This document shows positions 33,001 through 42,000 of a DNA stretch of 64,000 nucleotides, in pieces. Every line of letters begins with the position of its first letter. Positions within the stretch are counted from its first letter, which is position 1. A program made the position numbers. Source of the DNA: Candidatus Kapaibacterium sp. (lineage in GTDB: Bacteria; Bacteroidota; Ignavibacteria; Kapaibacteriales; UBA2268); contig OY762428.1 of assembly GCA_963665665.1 (NCBI GenBank), positions 2,688,001 through 2,752,000 on the forward strand, given 5' to 3'.

Positions 33001-36000
33001 GGGAAGCTCGGGGGAACGCTCGGAAAGCACGAGGGAACGCTCGGAAAGCTTGAGGGAAAGCTCGGAAAGCATGAGGGAACGCTCGGCAGGCACGGGGTAA
33101 TGCTCGGGAAGCTCGGGGGAACGCTCGGGAAGCATAAAACAGCGGGTTTCCGGCGCAGAAAATTGTTTCCAAAGAACATACAAACGGTATTAATGCCAAT
33201 AATATCATACATTTACATCAACAAAATCCTGTTTAGCAGAATTCCTATAGGGTGATGGCCCGCACCGCCGAAATATAATTACATCAGGGCGCTGATTTCT
33301 CCAAATTTGTTTGTTTTAAAGGCCCGGAGAATTATATAATTATTCTGCCGGATGGGGCAGGAATGATGAAATTTAAAAAAACACCCGCCAAATTAATTAT
33401 TCAATAGATATTGTGAGCTATTGAAAATTATATTAATTTGGCGAAAAGAATAATTTGGACGCTCTATAATGATCTATGATACTATCCAAAATATTGATCA
33501 CGGGGATGAACCCCAAAGGAAACTTTGGAAATTAATTCCCCAGCAATCGGCAGTGTATTTACTCTCAGGATTAGTCGGCATTGTTCTGCTTGCAAATGAA
33601 ATACAGAAACAGCTCGAGGGTGAAATATGAGTAATGAGATTATTTTCTATCAACCGGAAAAGGACTTTACAAAATTAGAAGTCATTATTGAAGATGAAAC
33701 CGTTTGGCTTTCACAGGCACAAATGTCAGATTTGTTTCAAACAACAAGAAACAATATTACACTGCATATATCAAACATTTTCAAAGAAGGCGAATTAAAA
33801 AAAGATATGGTATGTAAGGATTCCTTACTAACCACTCAACACGGTGCCATCAAAGGGAAATTACAGACCCGGAAAATAAAGATTTACAATCTTGATGCTG
33901 TATTATTTCGATGGGAATTTTTAGAAGAGGTGTTAAGCATTATTAGCAATATACACTCCCTTCAATATAATTATGATGATCTAAGTTATGAGCAATGGGA
34001 AGAACTGCGCCAATTTTTAGTTACTGGTGGAACAACTATTAAAAAGGAAACCCCTCATGAAAAAACTACTCTTAATCTTAATACTACCCCTCCTCTTCTC
34101 CTGTTCGGAGGAGGATGACGGACCATGGACACCATGCAAACCGATTTCAGACCTCGAAATTCCAAAGATAAAAGACTCAGACGTGATAATTCGCCACCTT
34201 GGATACACCCTATCCTATAACGAGCAACATGAACAGGCAAACTGGGTAGCCTACGTACTGACAAAGGAGGAACTCCAGGGGACAGTAGAAAGAACTGATG
34301 ACTTCCGTCCTGATCCGGATTGCCCGGAGGGATCTGCCGATGATGATGACTATGCGGGTTCTGGATATGACCGGGGACATCTTGCTCCTGCAGCCGATAT
34401 GGCTTGGAGCGAAACTGCGATGTCGGAATCTTTCTTCTATTCAAATATGTCGCCACAGGATCCCAGTTTCAAACGGGGAATATGGAAGAGGGTAGAGGAG
34501 GAGGTGAGAGGTATGCTTGATTACTGTGATAGCGTTTACGTCATCACTGGCCCTGTCCTGCGTGACGGACTACCAACTATAGGCCCTAATAATGTTAGTG
34601 TTCCGGAATATTATTTCAAAGTATTATGGATGTTCCGAGATTGTGAGTATTTAGAAATGGGGGTATTTCTGCTTAAGAACGAGAAAAACGACAGAGACGA
34701 ATGGCGCTATGTAAAAACTGTGGATTCTATCGAGGCTTTGACCGGAATTGATTTCTTCTATAAGCTTCCGGATGATATTGAAGACAAGATGGAAAGTGAA
34801 ACCTGGCAGGTGCCGGTAGATAGGATTGGGAAGTAGGAGCTAACGTCGGTATTACCGAGGTTAGGTAAGGGGTGAACGAAATGGGAACCCCTTTAATTAG
34901 GATAAAAATTATACTTTGAATATTGGAGTAAAGATGTACGAATACAAGACAGAAATTGTTAAAAGAAAAAACTACAATTTTGAAAATCGTAGTATGAAAG
35001 AAAACAATCTTGAAGTAATCTTAAACAGAGAAGCCAAAGATGGCTTTGAATTCGACAAATCAATAAATATTTCCGAGAAAGAATGGATACTGATATTCAG
35101 GAAAGAAGTTAAAGAAGAAATTTAAAGACAGTATTGACCACTACTCCCCGGCCACGCCGGGGATATTTCTACTCTTCCCCCTCAACAATTTTAATCTCTT
35201 CTTCCGTCAGGCCGTAGAGTTCATAGACCATCTGATCGATTTCTTTGTCGGTGCGGTCAATGATTTCTTTGATTGCCATGGCTTCTTTTTTTTTGGTTTT
35301 AAAAATTTCCATCCATTCCATTTCATCTAATTTGGAAAGTTTATTTCCAGAAGATTTTTTAACAGATTTATTTAATTCTTTAATGAAGTCTGAAAATTCT
35401 AATTTGTCCCAGTTTTTAAGTTTTTCCGATAATTTTATGTTAGTAAATGAACTCATTAAAAAAATTGTCAATATTTCAATTTTGCTGATATACTTACTTT
35501 GTAAATCTTGATATTGTTCTGATAATTTTGTGATTTTTGTATCAATATTTTTCGGCAAAGGTATTTTCTCTAAAAATTTATTTAAATATGAATAGTATCC
35601 GCCTTGTTTTTTTGTACTTATGGAATGCATGAAAAATTCAACAACTTTAGAATTTAAAAGTGCCAGAAGATAATTACTATCAATTTTATTTTGAACTAAT
35701 CCAAATACTCCAGCCCCTCCACATAAATATGTCATGCCTTTTTTATCTATAGCAAATCTATTCTCTTTACTAATACCAGGTGTCAATATTTTCATCGATC
35801 TAAATAAATCAAGTTTACCTTTTCTTATAAGTTTGTACCAATCAGATGAATTTGATAAGTTCTTTCGTGAATCCTTTCGCTTTTCCAGACTTTCCTTATA
35901 CTTCAGTAGGTAGGAATATGCATTAGGGAATTTTATTCTAAATTGATCTTCTGAAATCAATCTTGTTTCATTTTCAATAAGTTCATAAGGATAAATAACA

Positions 36001-39000: not shown

Positions 39001-42000
39001 GCCTGAGTTTTAACATCATCAAGATTCTTTGTTTTCGTTGATTTCAGTTCGATTACACCAATAGCTGTTCCATCTTTCAAGATAGCGCCGTCGGCTTTCT
39101 TGGCATCATCAAGGTTTTTATACTCTGTAGTCAGGTTATAATTCGGATCGGGATTGATTGTGTAGCCAAGAATATTTACAAATATATCCCGCAGGAATCC
39201 TTCCTGATATTGCTCCTCCTTGGACTGAATAATATTCTGGATACGTTCTGAATTAGAATAATGATCCTTGAAAGCCTGATATTTTTCTTTAACAATTGTA
39301 TCATCGATATTCGAAAGATACTTATTTACAACAGATTTCTGGTAAAGAGCCATAGTAGTAATACTTAATTATTGTTCAACCAACGAACCGTAATATACAC
39401 ACAAAATAGAATTATTTAAAGTGTTTAAAAAGGATTTTTTTTGAAATTAAGAGATAGAATCAATATCAAAATCCCCCCCTACCCCATCTCCTTTTTCAGC
39501 TGTTCTGCTATTTCGCGCCAGAGATATTCGCCTTCGATATTCTTATCGATGAATTCACGGCAGAAATAATACCTCGCACCAGCGGATGTCGTACATGTAA
39601 AAGTAGTATTGCTTTGTCCATTTGCCCTTTGGTGTAGATAAATATTTTGCCATATATTGGAAAAGCTCCCGGTCGCTGACAGAAAACTTTTTACCGAAAA
39701 TATCCGAAAAATTCCTGAAAAGCCGCTACCTGGAATCAAATTTGTCCGAAGAAAAAGAGCAACCCGTTTCTTTGCATCCCGACATTAAAAACGGCAGGCT
39801 GAAGATTGCTTAGGAAGGGGGGATTATCATGGGGATGAAAAGAAGTTTTTCCGGCAATGGGAGTAAGGCCGCTTAAAACAACTTTCGTAAACCTGATAGA
39901 ATCCAATTTTTCAGAAATTCTCTGCAACCTGCAAATCGAACATGATAACATTGACGAGATAGACTGGGCATTCAGCAAAGAGCGGCAGACATTTATAATT
40001 AACGTCCGGAATAAAGATAGAGCAAATATTGTTTTGGAACATCCTGTTTCACTGACGATAGAAAATAATCTGACAACAGTGTTCTCAGAAAACAAACCCG
40101 GCCTTGTTTACGTATCAGGGCAAAATATCGACCGACTTGTTTCCATTTACAAAGCCAGTCAGAAGGCAGGAAAAACTCTGGTCGTTGATGTTTATATAGC
40201 AAAAATTCTGAAGACGCTTTCTGAGTACAACAAATTTCCTTTCCCGAATAATTCGTATAATATCAAGGTTTGGTTTACGAAGTACGTTTGCGACCGCCTG
40301 GCCAGAATTAAAAGAAAAGATATACTCTATGAGTTCGCCGGATACAAGATCAGCAAATATGAAATTAACATGCAGCCGTCTGAATATGTTATCCTTACAC
40401 GCCCGTCACAGATAGTTGATATGGAGAAAATACCAAATCTGAAGCTTGGTAATTTCATATATTCATTATGGGAAGGCTATAAAAACAATCCCGACACAAT
40501 AAAATTGCTGGACTGGATACGGAAAAGGAAATTCACCGAACACAATATCCACACCAGCGGACATGCCGATCAGGAATCACTTTTGTGTTTTGTTAATGCT
40601 TTCAATCCCAGATATATCATTCCAATCCATACCTTGCAGAAAAATAAGTACAGCAGTATTTTCACGCAGAATGTTATAAATCTTCAGGATGGAGAGAGTC
40701 TGGAGTTGTCGGATTTTTTGGGTTGATAATGTAAAACGGTACGAGACCATTAGCATTGTTGAAATTTGAAATGCCAAAAATTGATTTATTAATATTAATT
40801 GTTTAAATTGTTATTAATAATGAACAGATTAGTTTTTTGATAAATTCGACTCATTTCCATAAGGAATATTTTATATGAATGAAATTGAATACCAGGAATA
40901 TAAATATGAAAACGGTAAACTTTCTAATCAACCATCTTTGATAAGTTCAATGGAATATGATACATATCAGATTTTAAATAAATTTGAAGACGAAAAAGCT
41001 ACTGTTTATTATCCAAAATCAAATATTAAAGTCCAGAAATTCTATTTTCCGAGTGGCCAACCGGCATATTTTATTGTATTAACATTCAACGAACAAGGAA
41101 ATGTTATTAGCAGTATAAAATATGATGGTCAATTAGTTTCTGATAATGAAATTGATTTCGAAAATCCTGATTATTATTTTTCAAAACCCGAAAATCAGTT
41201 TGAAAAAATTGATGTAAGCAAAAAAAATTCAAAAGGAGAACCATATTACCAGGTATTTAAAAGTTTCAAGGAGATATATCATAGTTGCTATAATATTGAA
41301 GAAAAGAAAGTTATTGAAAAAGAGGAAAATGGTAAACCAAAAATTGAAATATGGTACGATGATAATATTTTTGATAGGTTGGTGTGTTATTCCTATTTTG
41401 AAGACAAGCTTGTAAAAGAAGAACATTATAATATTGATATGCAACTATTTGAATCAATTATTTATAGTTACAACTCTAAAGGCTTTATTTCCTGCGTAAA
41501 TATCTATAGTGAATTCAACAGAGAGAAATATCTCCTAAAATATCATTCTTCAAAATATCTTAAAAAAATTATTAGTTTAAGCGATAATCAACCTTCATAT
41601 GATACTCAATATAAATTTAATTCAGAGAATCAAATAATAGCACGATCTGTTCAAAATATTGATAAAATTATAATTGAAAAGCAACTATTCGAATATAACG
41701 ATCGCTATCAATTAATAAAAATGATTGAATTTGATGAATTTAATGAACCTTATAAAACGACTATTTTTGATGTAGAATATTTGTAGGTATGCAAAAAGAA
41801 ATCTGCAAAACTCTCACTTTTCCCACCAAAACAATCCCCAAACCATCAATTTTCTTACCATTTTGGTTGGAAAACTTAGAATTTTGGTGTCGTCAACTTG
41901 TTTTTTGAACTTTTTCAAACATTTCTGACACTGTGAGGCTTTCATTTCGTTTGACCTCGTAAAATTTCGTAAAATTTCGTAACTATACATTACTGTACAA

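Follow-up and report, generated by a model that had tools for sequence, protein, structure and literature searches.

Sequence comparison confirms the protein studied here as an MmeI/Eco57I-family type IIG enzyme whose gamma-class methylase houses a Y1 HUH domain. Its gene lies in a window of 64,000 nucleotides from Candidatus Kapaibacterium sp. (contig OY762428.1). According to the explanation we favour, to which we give about an even chance, this otherwise ordinary enzyme hosts a REP-associated Y1 module, presumably still active and mobile, that persists as a selfish in-frame passenger.

The open reading frame for 1394 amino acids described in an earlier note was found again on the minus strand (Table 1), with an ATG start and a stop codon at 35169-35171, and the note's description of a IIG enzyme with an intact nested Y1 HUH domain is borne out by Pfam, PADLOC, and invariant residues. 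Pfam assigns Eco57I in two stretches (139.1 bits, cut-off 25.3), N6_Mtase (55.0 bits), TaqI_C (50.1 bits), and MmeI_Mtase (47.2 bits); of the methylase and spacer families listed earlier, only MmeI_hel drops out, since at 21.6 bits it lies, as does MmeI_N at 21.5 bits, under the cut-off of 27. PF20465 is precomputed for many homologues, and AF2 predicts helices for the spacer region of the homologue L017. The PADLOC profile REase_MTase_IIG (PDLC03609) gives 941.5 bits, with residues 1-556 covering positions 1-557 of the 1066 in the profile and the alignment picking up again past the insert. In a 16-sequence alignment, D88, E102, K104, D440-F448, H620, H622, W839, Y860, and N905-Y908 are invariant, as had been claimed, and D88, E102, and K104 remain so across 59 aligned homologues. 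By fold, the restriction-modification (RM) scaffold matches CamA, PglX/BrxX, BpuSI, MmeI, and DrdV. The defence genes AbiEi/AbiEii are found near the RM gene.

Table 1. Features of the RM gene with the nested Y1 module (window coordinates)
Feature	Position	Strand	Evidence
Whole gene: 1394-aa single-chain type IIG/IIL RM enzyme, nested Y1 module	35169..39353	-	ORF list, translation, Pfam, PADLOC
C-terminal helical region, conserved ...VYELYGLTEEEIKIVE tail at end	35172..35555	-	Alignment; long helices in L017 model
TaqI_C-type target-recognition domain (TRD), residues 1100-1266	35556..36056	-	Pfam TaqI_C 50.1 bits, cut-off 26.5
Methylase C-part, opening with GGFDVVIGNPPY (897-908; motif IV)	36084..36665	-	Eco57I second stretch 833-991, invariant G897-Y908
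Y1 (HUH) module, residues 553-896	36666..37697	-	Junctions of 11 Y1-less loci; termini of free-standing relatives
Y1 C-half: Trp strand (LWTQKY, W839), putative catalytic helix (Y860, N864, H868)	36666..36860	-	Invariant columns
Low-complexity insert, 177 residues, post-HUH helix to Trp strand	36861..37391	-	Translation, composition
In-frame minisatellite, 15-nt period, SENPL units	36989..37200	-	TRF; begins at palindrome right arm
Perfect palindrome, 28 nt, 14-nt arms, no spacer	37197..37224		Sequence; in-frame reading SRQGGMPPCL
AAG/CTT-type simple repeat (Ser/Thr/Phe run), upstream of palindrome	37236..37285	-	TRF periods 3 and 24; translation
Y1 N-half: beta1 (WHITTA, 560-565), helix, beta2, beta3 with HUH (H620, H622), next helix	37392..37679	-	Pfam, invariant His, model secondary structure
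Methylase N-part, residues 423-552	37698..38087	-	Pfam MmeI_Mtase + N6_Mtase, invariant columns
MmeI-type helical spacer, residues 230-301	38451..38666	-	MmeI_hel sub-cut-off, PF20465 in homologues, L017 model
N-terminal PD-(D/E)xK nuclease region, residues 35-163	38865..39251	-	MmeI_N sub-cut-off, invariant D88/E102/K104

MmeI-family type IIG/IIL enzymes (MmeI, DrdV, BpuSI; PADLOC REase_MTase_IIG) have the same parts on a single polypeptide: N-terminal PD-ExK nuclease, helical spacer, gamma-class N6A methylase with NPPY, TaqI_C-type TRD, and C-terminal helix; the fold matches include 5HR4, 7LVV, and 3S1S, and the TRD swapping between close relatives described below may be counted as a further likeness. 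What distinguishes the present enzymes is a Y1 HUH module of 160-340 residues just before methylase beta-4 and the occurrence of in-frame palindromes in several loops; among the solved enzymes matched by fold, judged by titles alone, none mentions a comparable insert.

The Y1 module is confirmed as complete, with all of its predicted catalytic residues intact, and its ends coincide with the N- and C-termini of free-standing relatives. The methylase N-part bears motif I (DPACGSGAF, 440-448), motif III (CGNSL, 526-530), and FPDVF (548-552); the insertion, earlier placed correctly but loosely between motifs I and IV, lies between motifs III and IV. The Y1_Tnp match (residues 586-646) exceeds its cut-off of 23 as stated previously, but with 35.8 rather than 38.6 bits. 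Across 61 Y1 domains (45 nested, 16 free-standing) no variation is seen in the two HUH histidines, the Trp, or the Tyr, the Asn at Y+4 is invariant or nearly so in the 45 nested ones, and in the C-half W839, Y860, N864, R865, K867, and H868 do not vary in the 16-sequence alignment. Such strict conservation would suit a role beneficial to the host equally well, which counts against the selfish reading. An AF2 model of a homologous Y1 module reaches a pLDDT of 92.9, and its best PDB fold is 4ER8 (RAYT with a REP hairpin), followed by IS608, ISDra2, and IS200 TnpA, the IS200/IS605-type transposases that had been named as best before. The 177-residue insert is rich in Ser (52), Pro (22), and Glu (21), the corresponding loop of L017 is modelled with a pLDDT of 31-42, and the insert might impair the Y1 domain in this genome. 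Protein splicing is not expected, because a Pfam scan of the 1394-aa protein finds no Hint/intein domain and the residue right after the module is Gly, not Cys/Ser/Thr.

A variable low-complexity stretch is present in the Y1 module of every nested member, and its core is a conserved DNA palindrome. The in-frame 15-nt minisatellite reported to split the HUH domain is present (13.7 copies, 72% matches by TRF), together with a 48-nt unit (2.2 copies, 100% identity), and differs by indels in a relative's allele; however, such an interruption is not special to this genome, as all nested members are interrupted. The sequence GGGGCATGCCCC occurs once in the 5,458,198 bp of the 5.46-Mb genome versus 0.04 expected, and the palindrome of the window, whose ssDNA hairpin is estimated at -13 kcal/mol (z = -4.99), is the sole perfect one of its kind there. 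In 63 Y1-containing homologues, 113 palindromes are found in 223,416 bp (0.506 per kb), while their flanks hold 15 in 630,807 bp (0.024 per kb, 21-fold rarer); none occurs in 30,486 bp of 11 Y1-less homologues or in 85,272 bp of the flanks of Y1-less genes. The majority form is ACAAGGGG-N6-CCCCTTGT, C at -10 and G at +9 are retained in 111/113, and the centre is constant within a gene and varies across genomes. The three reading frames are used 83, 30, and 0 times by these 113, and the window copy adopts the third, so all three frames are used. A tandem repeat lies at most 30 nt away for 41/113 palindromes (3.7% expected), and 72 of 85 repeat periods are divisible by 3. Most members carry at least one palindrome within the Y1-coding part; beyond the module, positions differ from gene to gene. 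In each of five further nested-type genomes there are 1-4 sites, nearly all within or adjoining the RM-Y1 gene, and the sole outlier is in a second RM-Y1 gene.

Free-standing Y1 relatives (105-255 aa) have the same palindromes as the nested form in 25/28 loci, in the ORF or within 300 nt (upstream 17, downstream 12, both sides 10), and in five genomes with free-standing Y1 the palindromes are dispersed at 3-22 sites (control pattern, 0); the palindrome is probably the cognate DNA of the Y1 module. The window genome contains one nested Y1 copy and one unrelated free-standing Y1 gene, and no discrete multi-copy IS was found in it. By organisation, the Y1 clade is REP-associated: like RAYT/TnpA-REP in REPtrons with their REP or REPIN sequences (e.g., the E. 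coli RAYT, the best fold match), it comprises low-copy Y1 HUH genes flanked by their own, genome-dispersed palindromes. Unlike RAYTs, it lacks a conserved 5' GT[AG]G foot, its repeats form perfect palindromes with no spacer, its HuH motif reads DH-x-H in a sequence nearer to IS200/IS605 TnpA, and NCBIfam REP_Tyr_transpos gives 38.5 bits against a cut-off of 80; moreover, the nested Y1 forms part of a different enzyme, and hardly any of its repeats lie outside the gene for that enzyme. In the main text of Quentin et al. 2018 (PMC6006769), 'methyl', 'restriction', and 'Eco57' do not occur. The earlier label 'IS200-type' holds insofar as the nearest solved proteins by sequence are IS200/IS605 TnpA, but neither the organisation nor the best fold agrees with it. 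With TnpA of IS608 and ISDra2 the module shares HUH, a single catalytic Tyr on a C-terminal helix, a polar metal ligand at Y+4, and the hairpin-recognising fold; in contrast to those systems, a discrete element in many copies, bounded by subterminal imperfect hairpins, is missing, and no tnpB-like neighbour was found among the ORFs scanned around the RM gene.

With residues 560-960 as the query, 562 proteins among 7998 scored candidates match at E<=1e-3 (the earlier count with residues 570-960 was 424), relatives are encoded by 576 of 600 matched stretches, and, in a sample of 401 genomes from the phylum, 9 have the architecture. PF01797 is tagged in 117 of the 120 homologues listed, and the three untagged ones (P0012, P0038, P0043) have a Y1 domain by sequence. 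The fusion is widespread, as previously claimed, but trees and mosaics point to a module that was repeatedly gained, lost, or exchanged at one site rather than to one conserved architecture. The module is absent from 11 of 74 classified loci, which have the common junction F-[AVKD]-[KN]-GGFD and interleave with Y1-containing alleles in trees. In AU tests, with groups set by architecture but after a first tree had been seen, a single clade was rejected both for Y1-less forms (dlnL 347, p 5e-36) and for nested Y1 (dlnL 195, p 1e-14). Free-standing Y1 genes fall inside nested-type clades and vice versa, and host and module phylogenies conflict; for example, the near-identical host genes L005 and L023 (89% and 88% identity in the two flanks) carry different Y1 modules (49% identity). 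In L112, the module occupies the same site in a distant Eco57I subfamily (23-28% identical upstream), both flanks are of that subfamily's own type, and the 120 nearest relatives of L112 (61-92% identity) all lack the module. It seems that the Y1 domain has found its way into genes of this kind on more than one occasion.

Alleles evidently often exchange parts by homologous recombination, as judged by incongruent N- and C-part host trees and by TRD swaps such as that in a close relative (P0002 / organism B) ~97% identical upstream, and within the main family this process could account for the greater part of the incongruence without any transposition. It is on this process that an unlikely account relies, namely that a domesticated RAYT was captured once, long ago, that allelic recombination produced all incongruence, with the conserved module termini and host flanks as crossover sites, and that the module is kept to manage in-gene palindromes acting at the DNA or RNA level (e.g., in mRNA stability, in pausing, or in autoregulation of an enzyme that could be toxic). 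A palindrome in the Y1-coding part of most members would fit. However, homologous recombination cannot create the 5' junction of L112, because the host is so divergent upstream and the relatives are empty, and the account is also at odds with the intermingling of free-standing and nested genes, the rejection of one nested clade, and the varying palindrome positions outside the module.

We likewise regard as improbable that the Y1 domain has been exapted for defence, as an integrated part that recognises or nicks hairpins in invading ssDNA (ssDNA phages, conjugative or rolling-circle DNA, IS200-type elements) or tethers the enzyme there, the in-gene palindromes being side products. The commonness of the architecture, the neighbouring AbiE genes, and catalytic residues invariant even though the hosts of nested domains diverged to about 45-50% identity would all agree with this. 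Against it, the enzyme should work without the module, because Y1-less alleles with an identical junction interleave with Y1-containing ones; the DNA partner that is conserved is a palindrome belonging to the module itself, common to free-standing relatives, and no feature of an invader; host and module phylogenies conflict; and for the module plasmids gave no match and phages only weak ones. Very improbable is an inert relic, i.e., a tolerated, catalytically dead spacer with slippage-prone repeats, as the disordered insert in the window copy and the scarcely spread palindromes of nested-type genomes might suggest, since the HUH, Trp, Tyr, and Y+4 Asn are retained, the palindromes remain perfect while their centres co-vary, and models predict a confidently folded module.

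As a selfish passenger, the module would have arrived with its cognate palindrome at a surface position of the methylase, directly before strand beta-4 (GGFDVVIGNPPY), and would be dispensable for restriction or modification. While the gene is single-stranded, in replication or transcription, the palindrome could form a hairpin bound by the Y1 domain, and Tyr860, with His620, His622, and Asn864 as putative metal ligands, would cut next to it before the strand is rejoined. Because Y1 would act mainly in cis, extra palindrome copies and adjoining tandem duplications would arise in its own gene, and only copies in frame and in loops would survive, which would account for the low-complexity insert and the 15-nt minisatellite here. 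Classical cut-and-paste of the IS200/IS605 type is not evident, since the exact module junctions of the main family carry no palindromes, and no recent insertion or excision was seen; the closest pairs with and without Y1 are only 72-87% identical in flanking DNA, and the read-derived data are assembled contigs, in which rare variants do not show. Short palindromic DNA is also tolerated in frame in protein surface loops in the case of Rickettsia palindromic elements, but the present palindromes go with a single Y1 clade and, where Y1 is nested, with the very gene encoding that Y1 domain.

A non-splicing in-frame homing insertion is reported for the ShiLan domain of actinophage methylases (PMC11855218), which is predicted, as is the Y1 module, to protrude from the fold of its host as a loop. 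Like ShiLan and inteins, the module shares the reading frame of a DNA methylase and is sporadically present or absent among close relatives; whereas the nuclease of ShiLan is reported to be an out-of-frame HNH, in the present enzymes the in-frame domain, a Y1 HUH, is itself the nuclease.

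The enzyme that hosts the nested Y1 module is an ordinary representative of its kind. Restriction-modification (RM) enzymes of the MmeI family, types IIG/IIL, cut in a SAM-dependent manner at a fixed distance from an asymmetric site, methylate one strand, and require neither a separate partner methylase nor a specificity subunit. According to PADLOC, Pfam, and its motifs, the window enzyme unites in one polypeptide a PD-(D/E)xK nuclease, a gamma-class N6A methylase, and a C-terminal target-recognition domain (TRD), and the 14 ORFs around its gene contain no match to methylase or S-subunit families. 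The PADLOC model REase_MTase_IIG (PDLC03609) scores 941.5 bits; residues 1–556 align to profile positions 1–557 of 1066, and the alignment picks up again past the Y1 insert. In Pfam, Eco57I reaches 139.1 bits in two stretches and is accompanied by N6_Mtase, MmeI_Mtase, TaqI_C, and Y1_Tnp, with MmeI_N and MmeI_hel slightly under their cut-offs. The motifs follow in the order D88...E102-x-K104, motif I DPACGSGAF (440–448), CGNSL (526–530), FPDVF (548–552), WHITTA (560), H620/H622 (HUH), W839, Y860, and GGFDVVIGNPPY (897–908), where D88/E102/K104, motif I, and NPPY are invariant in the aligned homologues. Thus, the open frame, Pfam, PADLOC, and the motif order bear out the earlier note, which had described a 1394-aa RM enzyme with a nested Y1 domain; the differences concern minor figures.

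The AF2 model of a full-length 1188-aa homologue (L017, 59-row alignment) has a mean pLDDT of 81 and a pTM of 0.57, and its Foldseek matches are CamA, PglX/BrxX, M.BseCI, BpuSI, MmeI, DrdV, and M.TaqI. An identity with PglX of the BREX system was rejected: the NCBIfam PglX models give the window enzyme only 54–108 bits against cut-offs of 400–900, and no BREX genes are found among the neighbours. In a relative that is ~97% identical in the N-terminal half (P0002), the TRD is entirely different, with 1208 other letters replacing 1337 (window 35291–36629 against the contigs of two runs), which is natural specificity swapping. Four homologues of 781–786 aa (P0121, P0134, P0232, and P0240) start at the methylase, without the nuclease and the spacer, and retain the nested Y1, which could reflect either truncated gene calls or methylases that have no nuclease.

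Features of the RM gene and its surroundings (window coordinates)
Feature	Position	Strand	Remark
AbiEi-like (weak, 21.5 bits) and AbiEii (140.5 bits) toxin-antitoxin pair	27814–29330		
PrkA-like kinase	29376–31703		opposite strand to the preceding AbiEi/AbiEii pair
DNA/RNA non-specific endonuclease, 182 bits	34027–34836		directly downstream of the RM gene
Whole RM gene with nested Y1	35169–39353	-	single open frame, 1394 codons, ATG start
15-nt minisatellite, 13.7 copies	36989–37200		starts at the right arm of the palindrome
Perfect 28-nt palindrome	37197–37224		seen in the sequence; read one base out of register relative to homologues, as SRQGGMPPCL
270-aa protein with C-terminal HTH_17 (excisionase-type) domain	42137–42949		3 kb upstream of the RM gene

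The module itself belongs to the Y1 HUH superfamily: it has the HUH motif, the Trp, a single Tyr, and a polar residue at Y+4 (H620, H622, W839, Y860, and N864), as well as the TnpA fold, and Y1_Tnp (PF01797) matches residues 586–646 at 35.8 bits (cut-off 23). In the L017 model, the Y1 module (555–745) is confident, with the exception of the loop 652–684 (pLDDT 31–42). The shortest natural module, 162 aa in length (L031), is modelled with a pLDDT of 92.9 (AF2, 61-row alignment); its top fold in the PDB is 4ER8, the E. coli RAYT (REP-associated Y1 transposase) with a REP hairpin, followed by the IS608, ISDra2, and IS200 transposases, and the fold matches also include 2VJV and 2XM3. In a sequence-only search, the closest solved proteins are IS200-type transposases (2EC2, E = 7e-5), and RAYT is missed this way. 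Across 61 Y1 domains, of which 45 are nested and 16 are free-standing, the residues H, H, K, W, and Y do not vary.

Two familiar identities for the module, an IS200/IS605 insertion sequence and an intein, have been considered and rejected, and the canonical RAYT family model, REP_Tyr_transpos, gives 38.5 bits against a cut-off of 80. An IS200/IS605 insertion sequence is a discrete, usually multi-copy element with imperfect subterminal hairpins at both ends, often carrying tnpB; the present genome has one nested copy and one palindrome, transpos_IS200 stays at 26.2 bits against 55, and no tnpB-like neighbour is seen among the ORFs scanned. An intein is marked by a Hint splicing domain, Cys/Ser/Thr at +1, and a C-terminal His-Asn; here, Pfam shows no Hint/intein family, and the module terminates in ...EYK with Gly897 as the next residue. 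The other Y1 gene of this genome (contig C1:1821817–1822161) is free-standing, with a 155-aa frame and Y1_Tnp at 75.7 bits, and lies outside the nested clade, as the profile of that clade fails to detect it at E ≤ 1e-10.

The second component of the system is a palindrome. The peptide T-R-G-H-A-P-L-S, which recurs in homologues inside the Y1 module, in the loop of the nuclease, ahead of SKRKKDG, and close to the C-terminus, is the in-frame translation of a DNA palindrome, and the recurring peptides NKGLQPLV and EHAP can likewise be read as translated palindromes. GC-rich perfect palindromes with arms of at least 9 nt were counted over 80 loci. Genes with the module (Y1+) contain 113 in 223,416 bp (0.506 per kb) and their flanks 15 in 630,807 bp (0.024 per kb); there are none in 30,486 bp of Y1-less genes or in 85,272 bp of their flanks (0 per kb in both). 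Their consensus reads (A)ACAAGGG[G/A]...CCCTTGT, and 111 of the 113 have both C at -10 and G at +9. The central 6–8 bases vary among genomes, are always self-complementary, and are mostly identical across the copies of one gene. The 113 palindromes are read in two frames (83 and 30), and the window copy is in the third; from the different reading frames and the self-complementary variable centres, it follows that the conserved object is DNA (or RNA), not a peptide. By a rough classing, arms of the CAAGGG type are conserved in 71 of the 113, and in 28 it is the GAGCATGCTC centre that is conserved, between outer arms that are variable yet perfectly paired; 14 fall into neither group.

The window palindrome is the sole perfect palindrome of its kind in the genome; its 12-nt core occurs once in 5,458,198 bp (expected 0.04), and as ssDNA, it folds at -13 kcal/mol (z = -4.99). 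The loose pattern CAAGGG-N6-10-CCCTTG has four matches in the same genome, inside the range of 0–5 given by eight control patterns, so only the perfect palindrome stands out. In five other genomes with nested genes, CAAGGG-N8-CCCTTG has 1–4 sites each (control pattern 0), almost all in or beside the RM-Y1 gene; of two outliers, one falls in a second RM-Y1 gene and the other between genes. Rfam over 34800–39800 gave no match above threshold.

Two degenerate look-alikes of the palindrome are found in this genome in a Peptidase_C25 gene and in a Type_ISP_C fragment. The latter is a 395-aa ORF (C1:1345497–1346684; L187:1998–3185) beside a DDE transposase, with Type_ISP_C as its sole domain (177 bits) and the look-alike, with one mismatch, near its 3′ end; this ORF may be what is left of a type ISP enzyme that formerly hosted the element. 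Three identical 24-nt perfect palindromes lie outside the window at C1:4590862, 4592291, and 4593745, spaced by ~1.43 kb, and related GGGTTAACCC-centred palindromes at 3137846 and 3929489 form with them a separate repeat family. The GAGCATGCTC-centred class (peptide EHAP) is seen at ten loci, L005, L006, L012, L013, L019, L020, L034, L038, L072, and L077, with arms differing from copy to copy; at L077, one arm apparently reuses an earlier flank sequence. This class hints at a fold-back or template-switch origin.

Tandem repeats accompany the palindromes. The in-frame 15-nt minisatellite reported in the earlier note is indeed present, each of its units repeating the CCCCT of the palindrome arm. 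The adjacency of palindromes and tandem repeats is general and extends beyond the window gene: a repeat with a period of at least 6 lies within 30 nt of 41 of the 113 palindromes (length alone would predict 3.7%), a palindrome adjoins 39 of the 70 repeat tracts, and 72 of 85 repeat periods are divisible by three. The Y1-less genes have two repeat tracts in 30 kb. Compared with the window, the contigs of a related organism have indels within the array, where 78 nt are skipped at 36967–37046, and a replaced TRD, in agreement with protein P0002; the sequencing data for this comparison are assembled contigs from four runs, which are broken in the array and blind to rare excision or copy-number variants.

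The module also exists as a gene of its own. A full-library search with the L031 module gave 402 matches at E ≤ 1e-3. Of 18 longer ones checked, 17 are methylases of the Eco57I type that carry the nested domain, and the remaining one (P0230) is such a methylase in decay; the short ones (148–195 aa) are free-standing proteins that are 31–49% identical over the whole length, have their own Met a few residues ahead of the first strand, and share the end point of the nested module. A clade search at the DNA level with a 6-row alignment yielded 76 loci, 28 of which are free-standing Y1 genes with no methylase motifs nearby. A palindrome is present inside the ORF or within 300 nt in 25 of the 28 (17 have one upstream, 12 have one downstream, and 10 have both), and the farther flanks have 0.067 palindromes per kb. 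The strict palindrome pattern has 16, 9, 16, 3, and 22 sites on many contigs of five genomes with free-standing genes (control 0), that is, 3–22 sites as against 1–4 in six genomes with nested genes, the present one included. These free-standing genes and their palindromes are organised in the same way as a RAYT and its REPs. The likeness to a REPtron, a Y1 gene flanked by its own palindromes, holds for the free-standing relatives, whereas the nested form has the repeats inside the host gene. The present repeats also differ in lacking the canonical GT[AG]G 5′ foot of REPs: the position table of the 113 palindromes shows AACAAGGG arms. The Y1 module has no match in plasmids and in phages only weakly matches ordinary IS200 transposases of Nodularia phages.

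The nested architecture is widespread. With residues 560–960 as the query, 562 of 7998 scored proteins match at E ≤ 1e-3; among the matches listed, 117 of 120 have PF01797 together with methylase families, and the remaining three have the Y1 domain by sequence. When one genome per species was scanned, 600 stretches matched, 576 of them relatives, and 80 loci were retained; judged by how far motif I lies from NPPY, 63 of these have the Y1 module, 11 do not, and 6 are too fragmentary to class. All 11 Y1-less genes have the empty junction F-[AVKD]-[KN]-GGFD. Of 401 genomes sampled from the same phylum, 9 (this one included) have a Y1 match in an open frame of at least 1197 aa. Paralogue pairs within one genome are also seen (L051 and L071 on the same contig; L016 and L190 in genome G005); in one such genome, Y1+ and Y1-less paralogues are 330 kb apart, and in another, two Y1+ paralogues have different palindrome centres.

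The module could well be a selfish, still-active passenger of the RM enzyme, a reading for which we see an even balance of chances. Its history departs from that of its host. In a tree of the upstream part (551 columns), the six full-length Y1-less genes need five changes, four of them forced by well-supported branches, and the AU test rejects a single Y1-less clade (dlnL 347, p 5e-36). The Y1-domain tree interleaves nested and free-standing forms with nine changes (FastTree, 107 rows) or eight (IQ-TREE, 67 rows, with 7 rows left out for being long or short, as well as two-thirds of the nested rows of the first set). A single nested clade is rejected as well (dlnL 195, p 1e-14) with AU groups set by architecture, yet after a first tree had been seen. 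When nested genes are compared in pairs (2485 in all), the identity in the host part disagrees sharply with that in the module: L005 and L023 share 89% over 252 residues upstream, 88% over 100 downstream, and 49% in the module, and L002 and L026 share 90% in the host versus 48% in the module. The drop sets in a few residues inside the module, and identity recovers ~15 residues ahead of GGFD.

It is tentatively proposed, as one joint claim, that the module would be an autonomous non-splicing element made up of a complete gene of the REPtron type (the Y1 nuclease and its hairpins); it would insert in frame at a specific site, immediately 5′ of the GGFD-x3-GNPPY codons in genes for Eco57I-type methylases, and be expressed solely as a host domain; it would be gained, decay, and be precisely lost in the way of inteins and homing introns, with RM genes as addictive, horizontally mobile vehicles. 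No recent pair of empty and filled genes was found, the best flank identity being 72–87%, and the module ends and the target site are not definable because the available gene pairs are only 71–84% identical. Main-family nested genes have no palindromes at the module junctions. At one locus (L152:3944–4034), two in-frame palindromes lie directly 5′ of the nested Y1, like the upstream repeats of free-standing genes.

A single capture followed by recombination, with a regulatory role for the module, seems unlikely. Recombination is clearly active in the RM-Y1 family and may be the source of much of the incongruence seen in the Y1-less tree, the Y1 tree, and the pairwise identities. The nested gene L112, however, comes from another Eco57I subfamily (23–28% identical upstream). 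Its best 120 relatives (61–92% identity over residues 330–780) all lack PF01797 and the Y1 motifs and have the junction FAEVFEK|GGFD where L112 has FAEVFEK|KVIEKNWKAYHITW...DPIVEK|GGFD; L112 is 92% identical to P0269 as far as the junction, and its C-part has 65–70% identity to members of its own subfamily. Both flanks belong to that subfamily; homologous recombination with a main-family gene cannot make the 5′ junction. A putative A-rich/GARAAA-like repeat is seen at both L112 junctions. Exaptation of the module into defence is a similarly improbable account. That the module is an inert relic is very improbable.

RAYT/REP systems are widespread, and to our knowledge, the cellular task of their Y1 enzymes is still open. 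In the nested form, a single gene holds both a Y1 enzyme and the hairpin that belongs to it, and, as nearly all repeat copies are inside that gene, cause and effect become testable with one clone. If the proposal of a homing element is true, it describes a new lifestyle of HUH transposases, in which the insertion is neutralised by folding out as a domain and not by splicing; the case would show a mobile nuclease living within a coding sequence without splicing, in a host gene that is itself selfish and often transferred. Hundreds of proteins labelled at random as ‘RayT’ or ‘N-6 DNA methylase’ become recognisable as one architecture, and the natural Y1-less alleles mark a permissive insertion site in type IIG methylases that may serve enzyme engineering.

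No description of a Y1/RAYT domain inside an RM enzyme, or of such a module with its in-frame cognate palindromes, was found in the literature searched. The main text of Quentin et al. (PMC6006769), in its accessible part, mentions neither methylases nor restriction, and the supplements may list such fusions; the BREX survey PMC12839542 contains no occurrence of HUH, IS200, RAYT, TnpA, MmeI, or transposase. Judging from the accessible parts of the sources, the case comes closest to two precedents: REPs that lie in frame within RAYT genes of subclass 2.4, and the ShiLan insertion of phage methylases, which does not splice (PMC11855218).

As for the surroundings of the RM gene, an RMMBL protein is also among the flanking ORFs, and PADLOC gives no score to the neighbours (AbiEi/AbiEii, the PrkA-like kinase, the endonuclease, RMMBL, and HTH_17). 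The endonuclease and the HTH_17 protein may indicate an island.
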